64,000 nucleotides of DNA from an uncultured Clostridia bacterium. GTDB lineage: Bacteria; Bacillota; Clostridia; Christensenellales; Borkfalkiaceae. The translations under genes were made by a program, and so were the position numbers. The notes below the pieces were generated by a model. It made no database searches and was not told the origin of the DNA. It saw nothing but the letters and a program-made list of their open reading frames with translations. Positions 1-7,794 of the stretch are shown piece by piece; position 1 is the first letter of the stretch; each line of letters begins with the position of its first letter. The stretch is taken from assembly GCA_944328665.1 (NCBI GenBank), contig CALVHS010000030.1, positions 12,951-76,950 on the forward strand. The letters run 5' to 3'.

Positions 1-1634
1 TCGCCTCGCTGATCGGCATCATTCAGCCCGCCTTTTCGCGCATCTTTCTGGATCGGCTCTTGACGGGGGAAAATCCGGACTGGCTGATCCCGTTTTTGGT
101 CGCGTTCGGCTTGCTGGCGGCGGTACAGCTCCTCATGGCATGGATACAAGCGGTGTGGTCGCTGCGGATCGACGGAAAGATGTCGGTGACGGGCAGCGCG
201 ACGTTCATGTGGAAGGTGCTGCGCATGCCGATGGTGTTTTTTTCGCAGCGCATGGCGGGGGACATCCAGCAGAGGGAGGGTTCGAATGCCAGCATTGCGG
301 GTTCCCTCGTCAACACGTTTGCCCCGCTCGTATTGGATACGGTCATGATGGTGTTTTACCTCGTCGTCATGCTCCGTTACAGCTGGATATTGACGCTCGT
401 CGGCATTGGCTCTATCCTCATCAACATGATCGTGGCGCGGCTGATATCGAAAAAGCGCGTCAACATCACCCGCGTGCAGATGCGCGACGCGGGCAAACTT
501 GCGGGCGCGTCGGTCGCCGGCATCGAGATGATCGAAACGATCAAGGCGAGCGGCGCCGAAAACGGCTATTTTGAAAAGTGGGCGGGCTATCAGGCGAGCG
601 TCAACACGCAGAAGGTCAAATTTTCCCGCCTCAACCAATATCTCGGGCTGATCCCCATGTTCGTTTCGAGCCTTTCCAATACGGCGGTTCTGGTCCTCGG
701 CGTGTGGCTGACCATGCAGGGGCAGTTCACGGTCGGCATGGTCATGGCGTTCCAAGGATTTTTGAACTCCTTTACCGCCCCCGCCGAAAAGCTCATCTCC
801 GCCGGTCAGACCCTGCAGGAGATGCGCACGGAAATGGAGCGGGTAGAGGACGTGATGCAGTACCCGACGGACGTCGAATTCACGGACGAAGGGGAGGACG
901 CCGAATACGACAAACTCAGCGGGCTCGTGGAGATGAAAAACGTCACGTTCGGCTATTCCAAACTCGCCCCGCCGCTCATTGAAAATTTCAACCTCACGTT
1001 AAAGCCGGGGAGCCGCGTGGCGTTCGTAGGGCCGTCCGGGTGCGGAAAGTCCACCCTTTCCAAGCTGATCTCCGGGCTGTATCGGCCGTGGAGCGGCGAG
1101 ATCCTGTTTGACGGAAAACCGATCTCCGCCATCGACCGCAGCGTGTTTACGGGTTCTCTGGCGGTCGTCGACCAGGATATCATCCTCTTTGAAGATACCA
1201 TCGCCAACAACATCAAGATGTGGGACTCGTCCATCGAAGATTTCGAGATGATCATGGCGGCGCGCGACGCAAAACTGCACGAGGATATCATGCAGCGCGA
1301 GGGCGGGTATCAATATAAGATCACGGAAGGCGGCAAAGATTTTTCGGGCGGGCAGCGCCAACGTATAGAGATCGCCCGCGTTCTTGCGCAGGATCCGACC
1401 ATCATCATCATGGACGAGGCGACGAGCGCGCTCGATGCAAAGACGGAATACGAGGTCGTAAATTCCATCAAGGAGCGGGGGATCACCTGCATCGTCGTGG
1501 CGCACAGGCTGTCCACCGTGCGTGACTGTGACGAGATCATCGTCATGGATAACGGCAGGGTGGTGGAACGCGGCACCCACGAAGAGCTCTATGCCTTGGG
1601 GGGCGCGTATACAAAACTTGTTTCCAGCGATTAA
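1..1634 (+). CDS. Bacteriocin/RiPP-type ABC exporter, permease + ATPase (N-terminus lies upstream of the window)
   Basis: The frame is open from the window edge (first full codon at nt 3), so the listed TTG at 60 is internal. A hydrophobic TMD is followed by an NBD with Walker A GPSGCGKST, signature FSGGQRQR and Walker B IIIMDEATSALD. The stop lies 9 nt before the SD+ATG of a second ABC gene. Confidence 0.9.
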   Translation, partial: ASLIGIIQPAFSRIFLDRLLTGENPDWLIPFLVAFGLLAAVQLLMAWIQAVWSLRIDGKMSVTGSATFMWKVLRMPMVFFSQRMAGDIQQREGSNASIAGSLVNTFAPLVLDTVMMVFYLVVMLRYSWILTLVGIGSILINMIVARLISKKRVNITRVQMRDAGKLAGASVAGIEMIETIKASGAENGYFEKWAGYQASVNTQKVKFSRLNQYLGLIPMFVSSLSNTAVLVLGVWLTMQGQFTVGMVMAFQGFLNSFTAPAEKLISAGQTLQEMRTEMERVEDVMQYPTDVEFTDEGEDAEYDKLSGLVEMKNVTFGYSKLAPPLIENFNLTLKPGSRVAFVGPSGCGKSTLSKLISGLYRPWSGEILFDGKPISAIDRSVFTGSLAVVDQDIILFEDTIANNIKMWDSSIEDFEMIMAARDAKLHEDIMQREGGYQYKITEGGKDFSGGQRQRIEIARVLAQDPTIIIMDEATSALDAKTEYEVVNSIKERGITCIVVAHRLSTVRDCDEIIVMDNGRVVERGTHEELYALGGAYTKLVSSD

Positions 1635-1643
1635 GGAGAGCAT

Positions 1644-3854
1644 ATGGGCTGGTTCGACGAACAAATAAAACAGAGAAAACAGAACGACGACGAGATGTTT
1701 GCCGAGGCGTTTGCGGGGATCGCGGGCGCGGTGACGGGAGAAAAGCTCTCGGCGCTCGACAGCGGCGAGCAGAGGACGAAAAACGCCGTCGGCGAGATCT
1801 TGCGCTATTATCGCGTCAAGCCGTGCGAGGTGCCCGATTCTGTCAAGGACATCAACGAGCGGTTGGAATATCTGCTGCGGCCGCACGGGATCATGCGCCG
1901 TACGGTCAAGCTGGAAAAGGGGTGGTACAAAGAGGCGGTCGGCGCGATGCTGGCGATCAAAAGATCGGACGGGTCTGCGGTGGCGCTGCTTCCGTCCGGC
2001 TTCGCGGGCTATACCTATTTCGACAGCGAAAAGGGCAAGCGTGTGCGGATCGATCGCAAGACGCAGGCGCTGTTCGAGGAGGAAGCGATCGCCTTTTATC
2101 CTTCGTTTCCTCTCAAAAAGATCGGGATGAAAGATCTGGCGGTGCATATCGTCAAGTCTCTGTCTGTCGCCGACTTTTTGCTGATCGCCCTGGCGTCGCT
2201 GGCGGTCGCCCTGGTGGGCTTGCTGTCGCCGAAATTGACGAACCTGCTCTTTTCCGACGTTTTGGAGAGCGGCAGCCTGCGGCTTTTGACGGCGATCGCC
2301 GTCTTTATGATCTGCGTGTCCGTCTCGTCCCTCTTGATCGGCGGCATAAAGTCTTTGCTGATGGCGCGCATCAACACCAAGATGGGCCTGTCCGTGCAGG
2401 CGGCGACGATGATGCGCATCCTCTCCCTCCCCGCCGATTTTTTCAAAGGATACAGCGCGGGCGACCTCGCTTCGCGCGCAAGCAACGTGCAGTCGCTGTG
2501 CAACATGCTCATATCCACCGTGCTTTCCACGGGGCTTACTTCGGTCTTTTCCGTGGTATACATCGGGCAGATCTTCGCCTATGCGCCCGCATTGGTGGCG
2601 CCCGCGCTCTTGGTGATCGCGGCGACGATCGTCGTTTCCATCCTGACCACGTATGCGCAGCTGCGGGTGAGCAGGCAGCAGATGCAGCTCGGCGCGGAAG
2701 AAAGCGGCTTGACGTACGCCCTCATTTCGGGCGTGCAGAAGATCAAACTGGCGGGCGCGGAAAAGCGCGCTTTTGCCAAATGGGGGAATCAGTTTGCGAA
2801 GTCTGCGCGCCTCGAATACGATCCTCCCGCGTTTTTGAAGTTCAACAGCGTCATCACTTCCGCCGTTTCTATGGCGGGAACGATCGCGATGTATTATTTT
2901 GCGGTGAAGAGCGGCGTCAGCGTCGCCGATTACTATGCGTTCAACGTCGCGTACGGCATGGTCTCGGGCGCGTTCATGTCTTTGGCGAGCATCGCATTGA
3001 CGGCGGCGAACATCAAACCCGTCTTTGAAATGATCAAACCCATCCTCGACGCCTGTCCGGAAGTTTCGGAAGGGAAGCGCGTCATCGAGCGCCTTTCGGG
3101 CGGGATCGAGCTCAACAACGTGAGCTTCCGCTATAACGAGAACATGCCGCCCGTCGTGGATAACCTGTCGCTGAAGATCCGCCCGGGGCAGTATGTCGCG
3201 CTCGTGGGCGCGACCGGGTGCGGAAAATCTACCCTTATGCGCCTGATGCTCGGCTTTGAAACGCCGCAAAAGGGGGCGATCTACTATGACGGCAAAGATC
3301 TTTCGTCCATCGATCTCAAATCGCTGCGCCGCAAGATCGGGGTCGTCATGCAGAACGGAAAGCTGTTTTCGGGCGACGTGTTCTCCAATATCACGATCTC
3401 CGCGCCCTGGCTGACGCTGGACGACGCGTGGGAAGCCGCAGAACTCGCGGGCATCGCCGAAGATATCCGCCGCATGCCGATGGGGATGCACACGATCATC
3501 TCCGAAGGTTCCGGCGGGGTGTCCGGCGGGCAGCGGCAGCGCCTGATGATCGCCCGCGCGATCGCGCCGAAACCCAAGGTGCTGATGTTCGACGAGGCGA
3601 CGAGCGCGCTCGATAATTTGACGCAAAAGAGGGTCTCGGACAGCCTGGATCGGCTGAAATGTACGAGGATCGTGATCGCGCACAGGCTTTCCACCATCCG
3701 CAGCTGCGACCGTATTTTGTATTTGGAAGGCGGCAAGATCATTGAGGACGGCAATTATGAAGAACTGATCGCCAAAGACGGAAAATTTGCCGAACTTGTC
3801 GCTCGGCAGCGGTTGGACGATACGGAATATGTGGGAAAGACGACGCTTTTTTGA
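1644..3854 (+). CDS. Second ABC exporter subunit, permease + ATPase with a ~165-aa N-terminal extension
   Basis: SD aaggagag precedes the ATG. The protein has an N-terminal soluble segment, then a TMD, then an NBD (GATGCGKST, VSGGQRQR, LMFDEATSALD). The paired arrangement with the upstream ABC gene resembles two-ABC NHLM/Nif11-type export sets (family names recalled, not searched). Confidence 0.9.
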   Translation: MGWFDEQIKQRKQNDDEMFAEAFAGIAGAVTGEKLSALDSGEQRTKNAVGEILRYYRVKPCEVPDSVKDINERLEYLLRPHGIMRRTVKLEKGWYKEAVGAMLAIKRSDGSAVALLPSGFAGYTYFDSEKGKRVRIDRKTQALFEEEAIAFYPSFPLKKIGMKDLAVHIVKSLSVADFLLIALASLAVALVGLLSPKLTNLLFSDVLESGSLRLLTAIAVFMICVSVSSLLIGGIKSLLMARINTKMGLSVQAATMMRILSLPADFFKGYSAGDLASRASNVQSLCNMLISTVLSTGLTSVFSVVYIGQIFAYAPALVAPALLVIAATIVVSILTTYAQLRVSRQQMQLGAEESGLTYALISGVQKIKLAGAEKRAFAKWGNQFAKSARLEYDPPAFLKFNSVITSAVSMAGTIAMYYFAVKSGVSVADYYAFNVAYGMVSGAFMSLASIALTAANIKPVFEMIKPILDACPEVSEGKRVIERLSGGIELNNVSFRYNENMPPVVDNLSLKIRPGQYVALVGATGCGKSTLMRLMLGFETPQKGAIYYDGKDLSSIDLKSLRRKIGVVMQNGKLFSGDVFSNITISAPWLTLDDAWEAAELAGIAEDIRRMPMGMHTIISEGSGGVSGGQRQRLMIARAIAPKPKVLMFDEATSALDNLTQKRVSDSLDRLKCTRIVIAHRLSTIRSCDRILYLEGGKIIEDGNYEELIAKDGKFAELVARQRLDDTEYVGKTTLF

Positions 3855-3969
3855 AAATTTTTTCAAAAAAGCCGTCCATCGGCGGCGCTCGCACGTATTA
3901 ATAATGGAAAGAAAAAACCGCTTCGGGAAAATTTTCGCGGGCAGATAAAGATCAGACACGGAGACAAAA

Positions 3970-4177
3970 ATGACGGAAGCAGACGAACAGCCGCTCGCAA
4001 AGGCGGCAAGATCCTCCGAAAAACCGATGGCTCTCGCCCAAGAAAACGGTATGTTCGGACGCGTTTGCAGCGGCGCGCAGATGCTGTCCGCCCCCCCCCG
4101 GGATATGTAGATCGTGCAAGTATAAGGCGTATGAAAAGGGACTGCGGGTGCGCAATGCCCCCGCAAATATAAAATAA
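3970..4177 (+). pseudogene. Decayed precursor-peptide copy (truncated leader plus Cys-less tail)
   Basis: The 46-codon ORF 3970-4110 reads ..PLAKAARSSEKPMALAQENGMF.., which parallels the leader segment EKARAAKSAKELMSLAKENGVEM. Nt 4115-4177 read CKYKAYEKGLRVRNAPANIK*, the conserved tail with its Cys residues replaced. The middle of the gene is missing. Confidence 0.7.
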
Positions 4178-4195
4178 GATATCGGAGGATACAAA

Positions 4196-4612
4196 ATGGA
4201 AAACGAGGAACTGATGGAAAAGGCAAGGGCGGCAAAGAGTGCCAAGGAGCTGATGTCTCTCGCCAAAGAAAACGGCGTGGAGATGACGGAAGAAGAGGCG
4301 CAGGCGTACTTTTCGCAGCTCAACAAGAGCGGCGAACTTGCCGACGACGAACTCGATTCGGTCGCGGGCGGCGGCTGCCATTCGGGCGGCGGCAAGCTGG
4401 TGGTCACCGTAGGCACCCAAAAGGACTGCTTTGTCTGCAAACACTGCGGCGCAACGGCGGAGAAAAACTTTGTCCCCGAGGGGCTCATGGCGATCACGGG
4501 GTATTCCCACTACTGCAAGGGGAAGAATATTATCTCCAACTGCGGTAACTGCAAATATTGCAACTACGAAAAAGGGCTTTGGGTGTGCAACAACCCCGTC
4601 AACATGAAGTAA
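4196..4612 (+). CDS. RiPP precursor P1: Nif11-like leader (aa 1-60, ..ELDSVAGGG) plus 78-aa core with 9 Cys
   Basis: SD ggagga precedes the ATG. The leader MENEELMEKARAAKSAKELMSLAKENGVEMTEEEAQAYFSQLNKSGELADDELDSVAGGG has the Nif11-leader look and a double-glycine end. The core contains CFVCKHC and CGNCKYC knuckles and the tail EKGLWVCNNPVNMK. Confidence 0.88.
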   Translation: MENEELMEKARAAKSAKELMSLAKENGVEMTEEEAQAYFSQLNKSGELADDELDSVAGGGCHSGGGKLVVTVGTQKDCFVCKHCGATAEKNFVPEGLMAITGYSHYCKGKNIISNCGNCKYCNYEKGLWVCNNPVNMK

Positions 4613-4633
4613 ATCATATCGGAGGATTTTAAG

Positions 4634-5011
4634 ATGGACGAAAAACTCATTGAAAGGGCAAGGGCGGCAAAGAGTGCCAAGGAGCTGATGTCTCTCGCCA
4701 AAGAAAGCGGCACGGAGATAACGGAAGAGGAGGCGCAGGCGTACTTTGCGCAGCTCAACAAGAGCGGCGAACTTGCCGACGAGGAGTTGGATAACGTCGC
4801 GGGCGGCGGCTGCCACGCAAAGGACGGCAGATTGGTGGTCACGATCCATTACAGCTGCGAACAGTTCGTCTGTAAGTCTTGCGGGCGTTCGGGCAAACAT
4901 ACCCACCACGTGGGCAACATCGTGACCGTTTACCCCGCCTGCGAGATCTGTAAATACTGCACCCATGAAAAGGGCTTGTGGCTTTGCAACAATCCCGCCA
5001 ATATAAAATAA
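4634..5011 (+). CDS. RiPP precursor P2: Nif11-like leader (aa 1-59) plus 66-aa core with 8 Cys
   Basis: SD ggagga precedes the ATG. The leader is nearly identical to P1 at the DNA level. The core contains CEQFVCKSC and CEICKYC, and the tail is EKGLWLCNNPANIK. Confidence 0.88.
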   Translation: MDEKLIERARAAKSAKELMSLAKESGTEITEEEAQAYFAQLNKSGELADEELDNVAGGGCHAKDGRLVVTIHYSCEQFVCKSCGRSGKHTHHVGNIVTVYPACEICKYCTHEKGLWLCNNPANIK

Positions 5012-5028
5012 AAAAGGAGAATACGAAA

Positions 5029-5463
5029 ATGGAAAACAAGGAACTTTTACAAAAGGCAAAAGAAGCGAAGTCTGCCGAAGAACTGATGACGATTGCCAAA
5101 GAAAACGGGGTGGAACTGACGGAAGAGGAGGCGTCGGAATATTTCGCGCGGCTGAATGTAAGCGGCGAACTTGCCGACGAGGAGTTGGATAACGTCGCGG
5201 GCGGCGGCTGCCAGACGAGCGTCAACGGAGAAAAATATACGGTCGTCACGTCGGGGCAGCGCTGTTTCAACGGCGGGTATGAAAACAACATCGAGACCGA
5301 ATTTTCCGTGAGCGGCAACGCCGTCAAGGTGCCCGCCTATACGACGGATCATTTGTCGCTGCGCTGTACGTGGTCAGATTTTTCGTCGGAAGGCTGCTGC
5401 GGATATTGCCGCCATCTGCAATTTAAGGGCGCCACGGGCTATTGCGGAAAATCTGCCAAGTAA
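5029..5463 (+). CDS. RiPP precursor P3: same leader (aa 1-60) plus a divergent 84-aa core with 7 Cys
   Basis: The internal ATG at 5029 is preceded by SD aaggaga, so the listed upstream start at 4978 overlaps the P2 tail and is unlikely. The leader ends ELDNVAGGG. The core (CQTSVNGEKYTVV...GCCGYCRHLQFKGATGYCGKSAK) lacks the P1/P2 tail motif. Confidence 0.85.
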   Translation: MENKELLQKAKEAKSAEELMTIAKENGVELTEEEASEYFARLNVSGELADEELDNVAGGGCQTSVNGEKYTVVTSGQRCFNGGYENNIETEFSVSGNAVKVPAYTTDHLSLRCTWSDFSSEGCCGYCRHLQFKGATGYCGKSAK

Positions 5464-5491
5464 AGAGCGGACGGCACGCAGGGCGGTGATT

Positions 5492-5607
5492 TGCTCTGCA
5501 AATTCTGCTGCGAGAGCGCTGCAGGCGTCAGATGCCGCCTGCAGCGACTGTAAATATTGCCCTCACAAAAAGGCCTGTGGTCCTGCGATGACACTGCAAA
5601 TATAAAT
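5492..5607 (+). pseudogene. Leaderless 3' remnant of a P1/P2-type core
   Basis: The remnant reads ..ACSDCKYCPHKK then shifts frame. Restoring one nt gives KKGLWSCDDTANI, which parallels CKYC..EKGLW.CNNP.NIK. No leader or start codon is present. Confidence 0.6.
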
Positions 5608-5622
5608 AAGGAAATCAAAACA

Positions 5623-6045
5623 ATGGCAAACAGCGAACTTATGGAAAAGGCAAAGCGGCAAAAAGCGCCTAAGAACTGATGACGATCGCCAAAGGAAACG
5701 GCATGGAACTTTCGGAAGAGGAGGCGGCAGCCTGCTTTGCGCAGCTCAACAAGAGCGGCGAACTTGCCGACGAGGAATTGGATAACGTCGCGGGCGGCGG
5801 CTGCGTGGCGACAGGGTTGTCGAAAATTGACGCGAATAACGAAGCCGGGCGACAGGATAACCATCACAGATGGTTATGAAAACAAACGGTGTAATATGCA
5901 GGAATGCAAAAACGTGATATTCGTGGTCGATCGCGTCGACGAATATAGTGTGCATTATCACTGCGAAAAGTGCGGGCGCGAGAGACTTAACGCGACATGT
6001 TATATTGAAATATTTATAAAGCATTGTTGCAACTCGGCATTTTAA
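5623..6045 (+). pseudogene. Fourth precursor copy, disrupted by a leader frameshift, an in-frame TAA and a core frameshift
   Basis: The ATG at 5623 gives MANSELMEKAK, then the frame slips. The continuing leader frame carries a TAA at 5670-5672 before ELMTIAKGNGMELSEEEAAACFAQLNKSGELADEELDNVAGGGC. After GGGC the plausible Cys-rich core (..ITITDGYENKRCNMQECKN...HYHCEKCG...KHCCNSAF*) continues in another frame to 6045. Confidence 0.7.
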
Positions 6046-6049
6046 GATT

Positions 6050-7447
6050 ATGAAATACATTCTCAATCCGAACGTCGCCCTGCGCAGTTGGCGGCTGGTG
6101 CCCTATGCTTACTACATACGGCATCGCCGCGACGCGCTGGGGCTGAGACAGGAAGAATTCGAACTGTTGAAAAAGTGCGACGGCGAATATGAATTTTCCG
6201 CCGAAGAGGAGGCCGTGCTCCGCCCGCTGGCGGAGCGCGGGCTTGCCTTCCCCGCAAAGGGCGGCGAGCGGCTCGGCGAGTGGCAAAGGCACAGGATTTG
6301 CGACAACCGCTACTTTCCGTCGTTGAGCTGGATGATCACGGGCAAGTGCAACTTTAACTGCCTGCATTGCTTTAACGCGGCGGACAACGCCCCGTTGATG
6401 AGCGAATTTTCTTGGGAAGAGGCGGAAAAGCTCATCGAAGAGGCGGAAAAATGCGGTATCAACGCCTTCACCCTCACGGGCGGAGAACCCATGCTGCACA
6501 AGCATTTTTTTGACATCGTCGAAAGCATCTACGCGCACGGCATGTATGTGCGGGAACTCAACACCAACGGGCATTTCATCACGCCCGAAAGCCTTGCCCG
6601 CCTGAAAGCCGTTGACGGCGATATCCGCATCAAGATCTCTTTCGACGGGATCGGTCATCACGATTGGCTCCGCAACCGCAAGGGGGCGGAAGAGGAGGCG
6701 CTGCGGGCGATCCGTCTCTCCGTCGGAGAGGGCTTTTTTACGCAGGTGCAGACGAACGTGCACCGTAAAAACCTCGATACCTTATTGCAGACGGCGGAGC
6801 GGATGGACGAGATGGGTGTGGAGCATATGCGCATCATCCGCACGACGGAAGCGCCCCGCTGGCTGCAAAACGCGGACGGCGCCACGCTCGATATCGGCGA
6901 ATATTACGATCGCATGGCAGAATTTTCACATGCGTATGCGCAAGTTCCGCACAAAATGAGCGTCGATATTTGGCAGTACGCGATGCTGTATCCCGCAGAG
7001 AGGGCGTACCGCGCCCGCCCCGTGGAGTACGCGGAGGGAGAGTTCCGCACCACCTTTCCCGTATGCCGCGGCAATCGCGGAATGGTCTCCGTAGACGCGA
7101 ACGGCGACATCGTTCCCTGCCATCAACTGTCCGGGTATTACGCGAAGCACGGCCTTTATATCGGGAACGTCAAAAAGGAAGGGCTGCAGCGCCTTTTGCA
7201 GAGCGGCGCTTATCTCGGGGAGGTATGTGCCACGCTGGGTACTTTGGCGCAGCGGAACGAGACGTGCGCTTCCTGCCGGTATTTCCGCTACTGCGGGGGC
7301 GGCTGCCGCGCCATCGCGCTCGCCTTTACGGGCGATAAGATGGGCAAAGACCCCGCCAAGTGTATCTTTTTCAAGCAGGGCTATTACGAGAACCTTGTGC
7401 GCGCCATGGGCGACTGGCGTGACCTTGCCCCCGTTGCGCGCGGGTGA
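6050..7447 (+). CDS. Radical SAM / SPASM-domain peptide maturase with a ~95-aa N-terminal (RRE-like) extension
   Basis: The CxxxCxxC motif is CNFNCLHC (Cys100/104/107), followed by a GGEP-type motif (TLTGGEP). A full SPASM pattern can be read directly: C-x12-G-x4-C (CRGNRGMVSVDANGDIVPC), then CASCRYFRYCGGGC (Cx2Cx5Cx3C), then a later KC. The N-terminal segment before the rSAM core is typical of precursor-recognition domains. Confidence 0.9.
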   Translation: MKYILNPNVALRSWRLVPYAYYIRHRRDALGLRQEEFELLKKCDGEYEFSAEEEAVLRPLAERGLAFPAKGGERLGEWQRHRICDNRYFPSLSWMITGKCNFNCLHCFNAADNAPLMSEFSWEEAEKLIEEAEKCGINAFTLTGGEPMLHKHFFDIVESIYAHGMYVRELNTNGHFITPESLARLKAVDGDIRIKISFDGIGHHDWLRNRKGAEEEALRAIRLSVGEGFFTQVQTNVHRKNLDTLLQTAERMDEMGVEHMRIIRTTEAPRWLQNADGATLDIGEYYDRMAEFSHAYAQVPHKMSVDIWQYAMLYPAERAYRARPVEYAEGEFRTTFPVCRGNRGMVSVDANGDIVPCHQLSGYYAKHGLYIGNVKKEGLQRLLQSGAYLGEVCATLGTLAQRNETCASCRYFRYCGGGCRAIALAFTGDKMGKDPAKCIFFKQGYYENLVRAMGDWRDLAPVARG

Positions 7448-7548
7448 TCATCATAAACGGGCGGGCGTTTACATGGCAGAGCCATTCCCGACGATCGAAA
7501 AAACAGGGGGGATCGCGCCGAAAAAGAGCGGCATGGAGAAAAACCGCC

Positions 7549-7581
7549 GGGCATCATGCGGGCTGTATGCCCGCATGATGC
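7549..7581 (+). terminator. Strong 14-bp hairpin after the maturase gene (non-canonical terminator candidate)
   Basis: The sequence is ggcatcatgcgggc-tgtat-gcccgcatgatgcc. No T-run follows on the + strand, so the termination function is uncertain. Confidence 0.45.
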
Positions 7582-7596
7582 CATAAAGGGGTAACG

Positions 7597-7794
7597 ATGG
7601 ACAAACGTTTGAAACGGCTGTTTGATTTTCAGCGTTTTGCCGGCAACAGACGGCTTGCGGCGCTCATTGAGAGGGCCGAGTTTTCGCATGCCGAATCGCT
7701 TTCCGACGAGGATTTGGAAAAGGTCAGCGCGGCAGGGGATATCGATACGGCGCGCATCGGCAAGGAAGGCGAAGGGCAAAATGGCAACGAGTGA
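7597..7794 (+). CDS. Small hypothetical protein (65 aa) with a leader-like ..SLSDEDLEKVSAAG.. motif
   Basis: SD aagggg lies 6 nt before the ATG. The composition looks coding. The 3' end overlaps the next gene's ATG by 14 nt. Confidence 0.6.
   Translation: MDKRLKRLFDFQRFAGNRRLAALIERAEFSHAESLSDEDLEKVSAAGDIDTARIGKEGEGQNGNE

Follow-up and report, generated by a model that had tools for sequence, protein, structure and literature searches.

We propose that a tandem array of peptide precursors in a 64-kb stretch of DNA from an uncultured Clostridia bacterium (contig CALVHS010000030.1; the whole stretch is hereafter called the window) is a Nif11-leader (N11P) ribosomally made, post-translationally modified peptide (RiPP) or bacteriocin array, in which leaders recombine, cores are old and discrete, and units are born and lost. 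We give this reading a probability of about 0.7. The array occupies positions 3970-6045 of the + strand and comprises six units, three intact and three pseudogenes. It is flanked upstream by an NHLP-type (nitrile hydratase-like leader peptide) exporter pair and downstream by a radical SAM (rSAM)/SPASM gene. A first, sequence-only reading of this DNA had already counted six tandem units, and three-frame translation together with repeat families bears that count out:

3970-4177, + strand: psi-P0, a decayed type-A precursor that keeps the leader N-terminus, with an internal deletion, a C9 frameshift and its tail Cys residues lost
4196-4612, + strand: P1, intact, 138 aa, with a 60-aa Nif11-type leader ending in VAGGG and a 78-aa type-A Cys-rich core
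4634-5011, + strand: P2, intact, 125 aa, with a mosaic leader (5' part P1-like, 3' part P3/P5-like) and a 66-aa type-A core
5029-5463, + strand: P3, intact, 144 aa, with a leader of the same family and an 84-aa type-B core
about 5486-5607, + strand: psi-T4, what remains of a type-A core tail, frameshifted and without a leader
5623-6045, + strand: psi-P5, a pseudogene with a leader of the same family and a type-C core

The three intact precursors share one architecture. A charged leader of about 60 aa ends in VAGGG and is followed by a Cys and a Cys-rich core of 66-84 aa; a GGAGG-type ribosome-binding site precedes each gene. The type-B core of P3 follows the pattern CQTxVNG..YTVVTS...GYCGKS. 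Against the TIGR03798 profile (cutoff 32.3 bits) P3 scores above threshold at 36.0, with P1 (31.9) and P2 (31.4) slightly below it, and the window precursors score 24.7, 22.9 and 17.8 against Pfam Nif11 (cutoff 23.8). Database homologues of the precursors carry the name "Nif11-like leader peptide family RiPP precursor". Judged by sequence, the array units are Nif11-type (TIGR03798) double-glycine precursors. Spliceotides, which combine a Nif11/NHLP leader with the splicease PlpX, are spliced at an X-Tyr-Gly motif (PMC11002830); the cores of P1-P3 contain no YG dipeptide and so lack that motif. A leader hidden Markov model (HMM) search and blastn found no copies beyond the six units anywhere in the 64-kb window.

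The calls of two pseudogenes draw on repeats as well as translation: psi-P0 is supported by three-frame translation and repeat families D2, D3 and D6, and psi-T4 by three-frame translation and families D3 and D5, its best matches being type-A tails.

Leader homogenisation within the array

The expectation that leaders in this array are more alike than cores holds at the nucleotide level. Identity is 0.76-0.88 among leaders, above the 0.50-0.57 among cores, for which the shuffled baseline is 0.46-0.50. Three identical tracts stand out:

4222-4271 = 4657-4706, + strand: P1/P2 tract of 50 nt within the leaders, with 17 consecutive concordant polymorphic sites (P = 0.003)
4763-4815 = 5161-5213, + strand: P2/P3 tract of 53 nt covering the leader 3' end, GGG, the Cys codon and CA
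4744-4785 = 5735-5776, + strand: P2/psi-P5 tract of 42 nt

The first two had been reported as runs of about 50 and 53 nt, and both lengths are exact; the P2/P3 tract does stop 2 nt past the Cys codon TGC (4811-4813), as claimed. The extra CA opens a His codon (CAC) in one unit and a Gln codon (CAG) in the other at core position 2. A Sawyer-type run test, in which 60 polymorphic leader sites in 4 sequences were permuted, gave P = 0.003 for P1/P2, 0.003 for P2/P3, 0.008 for P2/P5 and 0.003 globally. The P2 leader is a mosaic, following P1 in its 5' half and P3 and P5 at its 3' end.

Synonymous sites in P1 and P2 are homogenised along the leader. The synonymous difference (pS) between the two genes is 0.156 in the leader versus 0.79 in the core, and identical residues use the same codon at 42/47 leader positions versus 14/31 core positions (Fisher P = 6e-5). 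The leader value is far under the rSAM pS between the window and its relatives, which is 0.45 for locus L084, 0.61 for L006 and 0.72 for L003. Orthologous cores exist for P1 in L006 (L006_1; 71% identical in the core, 48% in the leader) and for P2 in L004 (L004_1; 64% identical), so the split between P1 and P2 predates those species. Synonymous identity, mosaic tracts, the discordance between leader and core and an unequal-crossover chimera in a relative (below) uphold the earlier claim that recombination or gene conversion acts on leader DNA, and sequence comparison supports it.

The proposed mechanism runs as follows. A single rSAM/SPASM maturase with a domain resembling a RiPP recognition element (RRE) would, from what is known of the family, recognise the helical double-glycine leader of about 60 aa and, guided by it, modify the Cys-rich cores; the C39-peptidase ABC pair would then cut after GG and export the product. 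All copies would share the leader module because each must fit the same maturase and exporter. The evolution of the array is what the sequence comparisons show. Neighbouring leader DNA recombines repeatedly by gene conversion and unequal crossing-over, leaving mosaic tracts and very low synonymous divergence within an array. Leaders drift between species, and the cores are discrete old families, non-homologous or deeply diverged from one another and each conserved between species. Conversion tracts all end at GG(G)-Cys, where homology ends. Unequal crossover within leader homology adds, deletes and re-pairs units, and dispensable copies decay.

We considered and rejected two DNA features as drivers of exchange. 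AGCGG, the Chi site of B. subtilis, opens the 53-nt run, but it is no more frequent than chance predicts (234 occurrences, 234 expected), and the Chi sequence of this host may differ. For procA a conserved DNA motif or G-quadruplex has been proposed at this boundary; that does not fit here either, as junction DNA varies (GTCGCGGGCGGCGGCTGC in the window, GTCTCCGGTGGTGGTTGC in L062); across relatives the protein motif at the leader/core junction is conserved, the DNA is not.

Old cores, drifting leaders and unit turnover in related loci

The rSAM gene has at least 1476 homologues at E <= 1e-100. We collected 80 related loci from species-representative genomes, mostly gut metagenome-assembled genomes (MAGs) of Lachnospiraceae, Oscillospiraceae and other Clostridia, and scanned 83 sequences (82 fetched loci plus the window) with the leader HMM. 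Precursors were present in 73 of the 83, giving 153 intact genes at 1-8 per locus. Their cores, with a median length of 72 aa, fall into at least 43 clusters. Type A, found in P1 and P2 and in the psi-P0 and psi-T4 tails, accounts for 72 cores in 36 loci; type B, the type of P3 (core cluster 1), for 11 cores in 9 loci; type C is the core of psi-P5. The cores gave no significant Pfam match, faint zinc-ribbon matches only, and no PDB sequence match.

These families are old. Besides the P1 and P2 orthologues already named, an orthologue of the P3 core adjoins the rSAM gene in L084, and the psi-P5 core, once repaired, matches L006_6 (score 190). These comparisons assign P1/P2, P3 and psi-P5 to three distinct and old core families, all with orthologues in other species. 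This overturns one part of the sequence-only reading, which held that the cores diverge and the cargo diversifies. The cores are conserved families, and the break after the Cys is a module junction rather than the onset of rapid divergence: sequences become unalignable there because a homologous leader module meets non-homologous cargo, and homology stops.

The leaders of the 153 precursors end in AGGG (54), SGGG (53), VAGG (18) or VSGG (14), and all window units end in VAGGG. In 119 of the 153 the core opens with Cys, and in 142 a Cys occurs among its first three residues, in any core family. In the window the corresponding positions are:

4376-4378, 4811-4813 and 5209-5211: post-GG Cys codons

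A Cys near the core start is the sole feature common to all cargo types and a candidate site of recognition or modification by the rSAM enzyme.

Relatives also preserve recombinants. The leaders of L006_1 and L006_3 are 95% identical in nucleotides and their cores are unrelated, with identity ending at TGCCA, as it does between P2 and P3. L062 has two adjacent precursors, and the related locus L055 has one that combines both: L055_1 joins the L062_1 leader (94% nucleotide identity) to the L062_2 core (99%). The recombination point is some 20 nt upstream of the junction, within the shared stretch ...GATGACGA...TCTGTCTCCGGTGGTGGTTG. As the alignment reads, L055_1 is the product of an unequal crossover between neighbours through leader homology, which deleted one unit and re-paired leader with core.

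Such chimeras are what would be expected if core-cassette replacement were the dominant process, a rival that we consider possible though unlikely. Here a leader-bearing unit would duplicate, and crossover at the conserved leader 3' end, also following horizontal transfer, would put foreign or neighbouring cores after the leaders already present, so that the likeness of leaders would stem from recent duplication, not from recurrent homogenisation. L055_1 is exactly such a re-pairing, unrelated core clusters are mixed in 23 of the 35 multi-copy loci, and the order of units in the window and L006 is not collinear. The mosaic P2 leader, however, needs exchange inside the leader and not at the junction alone. 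The cores of P1 and P2, moreover, are of the same type and saturated at synonymous sites, yet part of their leaders is nearly identical. Core replacement and leader conversion are not mutually exclusive.

A comparison of leaders and cores within and between loci bears on a second rival, in which there is no recombination and the copies are old duplicates whose leaders stay alike because purifying selection, acting on protein or mRNA, is far stronger on them than on the cores. A leader that must fit a single maturase and exporter would be constrained in this way, and its protein motifs (ELSDEELDNVAGG) are indeed conserved across the family. Within loci the leader is the more similar part in 209 of 211 pairs. 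Between loci the picture differs: reciprocal-best core orthologues have a mean identity of 0.72 in the leader and 0.77 in the core; where core identity is at least 0.6, the leader is less conserved than the core in 24 of 35 orthologue pairs; and nucleotide comparison of 13 orthologue pairs shows leaders no better conserved than cores in most of them. A gene's closest leader usually belongs to a paralogue of its own array, its closest core to another genome. Synonymous codon identity for leader versus core is 0.72 versus 0.56 within loci and 0.48 versus 0.43 between loci.

Leaders that are alike within arrays yet drift between species indicate concerted evolution of the leader module, and the contrast between the two comparisons rules out that the leader is simply more constrained. 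Purifying selection would also leave unexplained why synonymous sites are homogenised too (42/47 against 14/31 codons; pS 0.16 against 0.79), why orthologous leaders are no better conserved than cores at the amino-acid or synonymous level, and why the tracts are mosaic. It is already largely refuted, and we hold it very improbable.

Each pseudogene carries the decay that the sequence-only reading described. In psi-P0 an internal deletion and a frame break at the C9 run (4092-4100) leave only the N-terminus of the leader, and the tail reads CKYK...GLRVRN where CKYC...GLWxCN is expected. It is the decayed counterpart of L006_4 (RVCSGAQMLSAPP / PGICRSCKYKAYEKGLRVRNAPANIK versus CHVCGSAQMLSDPGTCKSCKYKTYEKGLWLCNNPANTK). 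psi-T4 has a 1-nt deletion, has lost its stop codon and has no leader. psi-P5 has lost 1 nt near 5656, contains an in-frame TAA at 5670-5672 and shifts frame within the core near 5841; its intact counterpart is L006_6.

The possibility that such lesions are assembly errors was checked against conspecific sequence. L001 and L002, contigs from metagenome samples that are unrelated, match the window at 99.8% identity, contain all the lesions and differ at two single-nucleotide polymorphisms (SNPs) in the array. L085 and L086, which cover the array from 4471 and 5532, respectively, are 99.1-99.4% identical to the window with zero indels. Five independent assemblies, from different samples and assemblers, thus share the same structure and the same lesions wherever they are covered, and lesions found in five independent metagenome assemblies are not assembly errors. 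There is next to no chance that repeated leaders produced a chimeric or collapsed metagenome assembly with sequencing errors posing as lesions: the source is of metagenome type and one lesion lies in the C9 homopolymer, but the assemblies agree base for base on the structure and the covered lesions (L001 and L002 span the whole array), and the identical runs of 50-53 nt are shorter than typical final assembly k-mers.

Strain variation in the array is sparse. The two SNPs that separate the window from L001 and L002 are at 4748 and 4976. At 4748 the window and L085 have G, and L001 and L002 have T, so that an Ala/Ser residue of P2 toggles between the P3/P5 state and the P1 state; the change at 4976 is a synonymous Leu change that seems private to the window. 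SNPs of L085 and L086 within psi-T4 and psi-P5 match no paralogue. We looked for ongoing conversion in these strain SNPs and set the idea aside, as too few are informative and 4748 alone toggles between paralogue states.

Decay and rearrangement extend to the relatives. Frameshifted, truncated or stop-bearing copies also occur in L017, L022, L025, L042, L061 and L080. L084 is the closest non-conspecific relative found; its rSAM protein is 86% identical and its array is different, with no trace of psi-T4 or psi-P5. The gene next to its rSAM gene has a P3-type (type-B) core behind a leader cut to ELSDDELDAVAGGG, abutting an unrelated, divergent XRE-type helix-turn-helix gene (L084 1-837). Exporter genes are not found upstream on this 3-kb contig (ERZ17292901 k87_11856593), and the L084 cluster may be rearranged or decaying. 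The sequence-only reading had put forward birth-and-death turnover and suggested that copy number be compared across strains and relatives. The turnover claim has held up: the window has three fixed pseudogenes, at least six related loci have pseudogenes, copy number varies from 1 to 8, and arrays differ among relatives, as in L084. Sequence comparison thus supports birth-and-death turnover.

Several points weigh against recombining leaders in front of old cores. The run test rests on 60 sites, the bulk of the informative ones agree with a ((P1,P2),(P3,P5)) tree in which singletons cluster, and donors outside the sample, or constraint that is relaxed locally, could account for part of the mosaic. 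Strain SNPs show no clear sign of ongoing conversion beyond the toggle at 4748. Identical runs of at least 30 nt that span the junction are rare across the family (2 of 52 testable pairs), so recent conversion must be episodic, not continuous. The direction of exchange cannot separate leader conversion from core replacement. The family pair statistics use non-independent pairs from MAG contigs, and peptide modification is inferred from gene adjacency and fold.

A bolder version of the recombining-leader reading is tentative, and we think it unlikely. It would make the family a natural cassette system in which unrelated, foldable Cys-rich mini-protein cores, in at least 43 clusters and each conserved in its own right, are shuffled within and between genomes and come to lie behind a locally homogenised leader by crossover at the conserved leader 3' end or GG-Cys junction, with the leader co-evolving with the N-terminal domain of a single rSAM enzyme and the post-cleavage Cys as its possible target. 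If true, it would imply new rSAM chemistry that is independent of core sequence and a selectively maintained system of modular diversification in gut bacteria.

The maturase, the exporters and their surroundings

The genes on either side of the array supply the putative processing machinery:

3..1634, + strand: 3' part of the ABC1 exporter (NHLM_micro_ABC1, a C39 peptidase-containing ABC transporter, PCAT), with its 5' end outside the window
1644..3854, + strand: ABC2 exporter partner (NHLM_micro_ABC2), 736 aa, TIGR03797 748 bits (cutoff 709.4)
6050..7447, + strand: 465-aa radical SAM/SPASM peptide maturase whose N-terminal domain is RRE-like, with Pfam Radical_SAM, Fer4_12 and SPASM matches

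The ABC1 part matches TIGR03796 with 708.7 bits over profile positions 168-709; in L001 and L002 the whole gene is present and encodes 727 aa with Peptidase_C39.

The maturase has its CxxxCxxC motif at C100/C104/C107 and the conserved Cys residues of SPASM. It reached no equivalog cutoff in NCBIfam, the best being AhbD at 133.8 bits (cutoff 500), and among named maturases it scored 101 bits against StsB (cutoff 625) and 73.6 against PapB (cutoff 340). Its best PDB sequence match is SkfB (E = 1.7e-12). An AlphaFold2 (AF2) model built from 62 sequences has a predicted local distance difference test (pLDDT) score of 90.8, and its top Foldseek matches are SkfB, SuiB, PqqE, anSME and CteB (E = 1e-13 to 1e-15). 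Because the structural alignment with SuiB covers the N-terminal domain, the model suggests that this domain is an RRE-like leader-binding module. In the AF2 model of P1 (pLDDT 77) the leader is helical and the core forms a beta-hairpin; Foldseek found no structural neighbour for it (best E = 0.9).

Within the maturase gene, 13 of the 14 SNPs against L085/L086 fall in 6104-6403 (codons 19-118), with 1 in the remaining ~1000 nt. They cause six amino-acid changes, at residues 19, 33, 55, 56, 82 and 83. This cluster in the putative leader-binding domain looks like an imported recombination tract; the P2 and P3 leaders are unchanged alongside it.

Farther 3' of the rSAM gene lie genes for an extracytoplasmic function (ECF) sigma factor, sigG, nth and obg, a neighbourhood that identifies the host as a spore-forming member of the Clostridia, with a GC content of about 58%. 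Directly 5' of the exporter genes, L001 820-3386 encodes a HAMP/SpoIIE-type phosphatase, a HATPase_c_2 (anti-sigma-kinase-like) protein and a 158-aa protein that gave no domain match; together the three may constitute a partner-switching regulatory module that serves the cluster. At 3845-3872, upstream of psi-P0, a near-perfect A/T-rich palindrome of 28 nt (GCTTTTTTGAAAATTTTTTCAAAAAAGC) overlaps the end of ABC2 (stop codon 3852-3854) and could, from its sequence, be a terminator or operator. Scans of 3700-7700 gave no clear excess over shuffles, with 3 promoter-like sites versus 2.5 expected and 10 terminator-like sites versus 5.9 ± 2.1.

Some Lachnospiraceae loci have a second Nif11-like precursor class 3' of the rSAM gene, which does not occur in the window:

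L007 12221-13012; L008 11717-13037; L011 12762-13046; L034 12928-13654: second Nif11-like class

Its cores are Cys/Gly-rich repeats, such as NCLCVIGGGGS...CACVVGGGG, and L034 has two copies with the same protein sequence.

Known systems and what the array means

The resemblance to prochlorosins drawn by the sequence-only reading stands in part. Like the ProcA/ProcM system of marine picocyanobacteria, which makes class II lanthipeptides, this system has a Nif11-type GG leader, many paralogues per maturase and a sharp boundary at a G-rich GG motif. Prochlorosins combine a conserved leader with short, hypervariable cores driven by indels, and recombination has been put forward as the force that diversifies them, a mechanism still under debate (bioRxiv 10.1101/2020.03.09.984088; PMC10783134). 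The likeness fails for the enzyme and the cargo. The maturase here is an rSAM/SPASM protein and not a LanM, and the 19 window open reading frames that were scanned (long ones and the three precursors), all within these 64 kb, gave no Pfam match to a lanthionine synthetase. The cores here are long, at 66-84 aa (family median 72), and belong to discrete families conserved between species; the leader is not better conserved than the core between species; and the units form one tandem array adjoining the maturase, in a gut Clostridia host. The system is analogous to the prochlorosins and not a member of that family.

The N11P/NHLP systems are also related. Haft, Basu and Mitchell (2010; PMC2887384) defined these precursors and their exporter pair and already invoked intragenic recombination. 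The present array shares with them the TIGR03798 leader, the TIGR03796/TIGR03797 pair, similarity that ends at Gly-Gly and large paralogous families. The systems described there have thiazole/oxazole-modified microcin (TOMM) or lanthionine partners and come mostly from cyanobacteria and proteobacteria; here the partner is rSAM/SPASM, the host a gut Clostridia, and a Cys follows the GG nearly without exception.

Ruminococcin C and other sactipeptide/ranthipeptide clusters (PMC6779426, PMC6760926) likewise have tandem paralogues with Cys-rich cores beside rSAM/SPASM genes in gut Firmicutes. As in that class, a putative rSAM/SPASM enzyme with an RRE-like domain, its predicted fold nearest SkfB, SuiB and CteB, adjoins Cys-containing precursors. 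Unlike Ruminococcin C-type clusters, the present one has Nif11-type double-glycine leaders, PCAT export and unrelated cores in one array, and no named maturase, StsB and PapB included, matches its rSAM protein at equivalog level.

Module homogenisation as such has parallels elsewhere. A 2026 review (PMC13500794) treats gene conversion for modules of polyketide synthases and non-ribosomal peptide synthetases (PKS/NRPS) and discusses the diversification of RiPPs through enzyme promiscuity, with no mention of leader conversion. As in PKS/NRPS module conversion, recombination here homogenises a shared module, with differing cargo and with units gained and lost; the module is a RiPP leader. Our literature search returned no description of the rSAM/N11P family of Clostridia, nor of gene conversion of RiPP leaders. 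Conotoxin superfamilies combine a conserved signal and pro region with a hypervariable toxin, and they too keep a shared module similar in front of differing cargo.

If the recombining-leader reading is right, this array offers a clean sequence-level case of a RiPP leader in concerted evolution within an array and drifting between species, with cores as conserved, exchangeable cassettes. Prochlorosins show the reverse, with a conserved leader in front of hypervariable cores. The reading would also explain how one maturase and one exporter serve many cargo types. The near-invariant Cys at core position 1 provides a first hypothesis for the site of modification, and the large, uncharacterised rSAM/N11P family of gut Clostridia becomes a target for enzymology and bacteriocin discovery.

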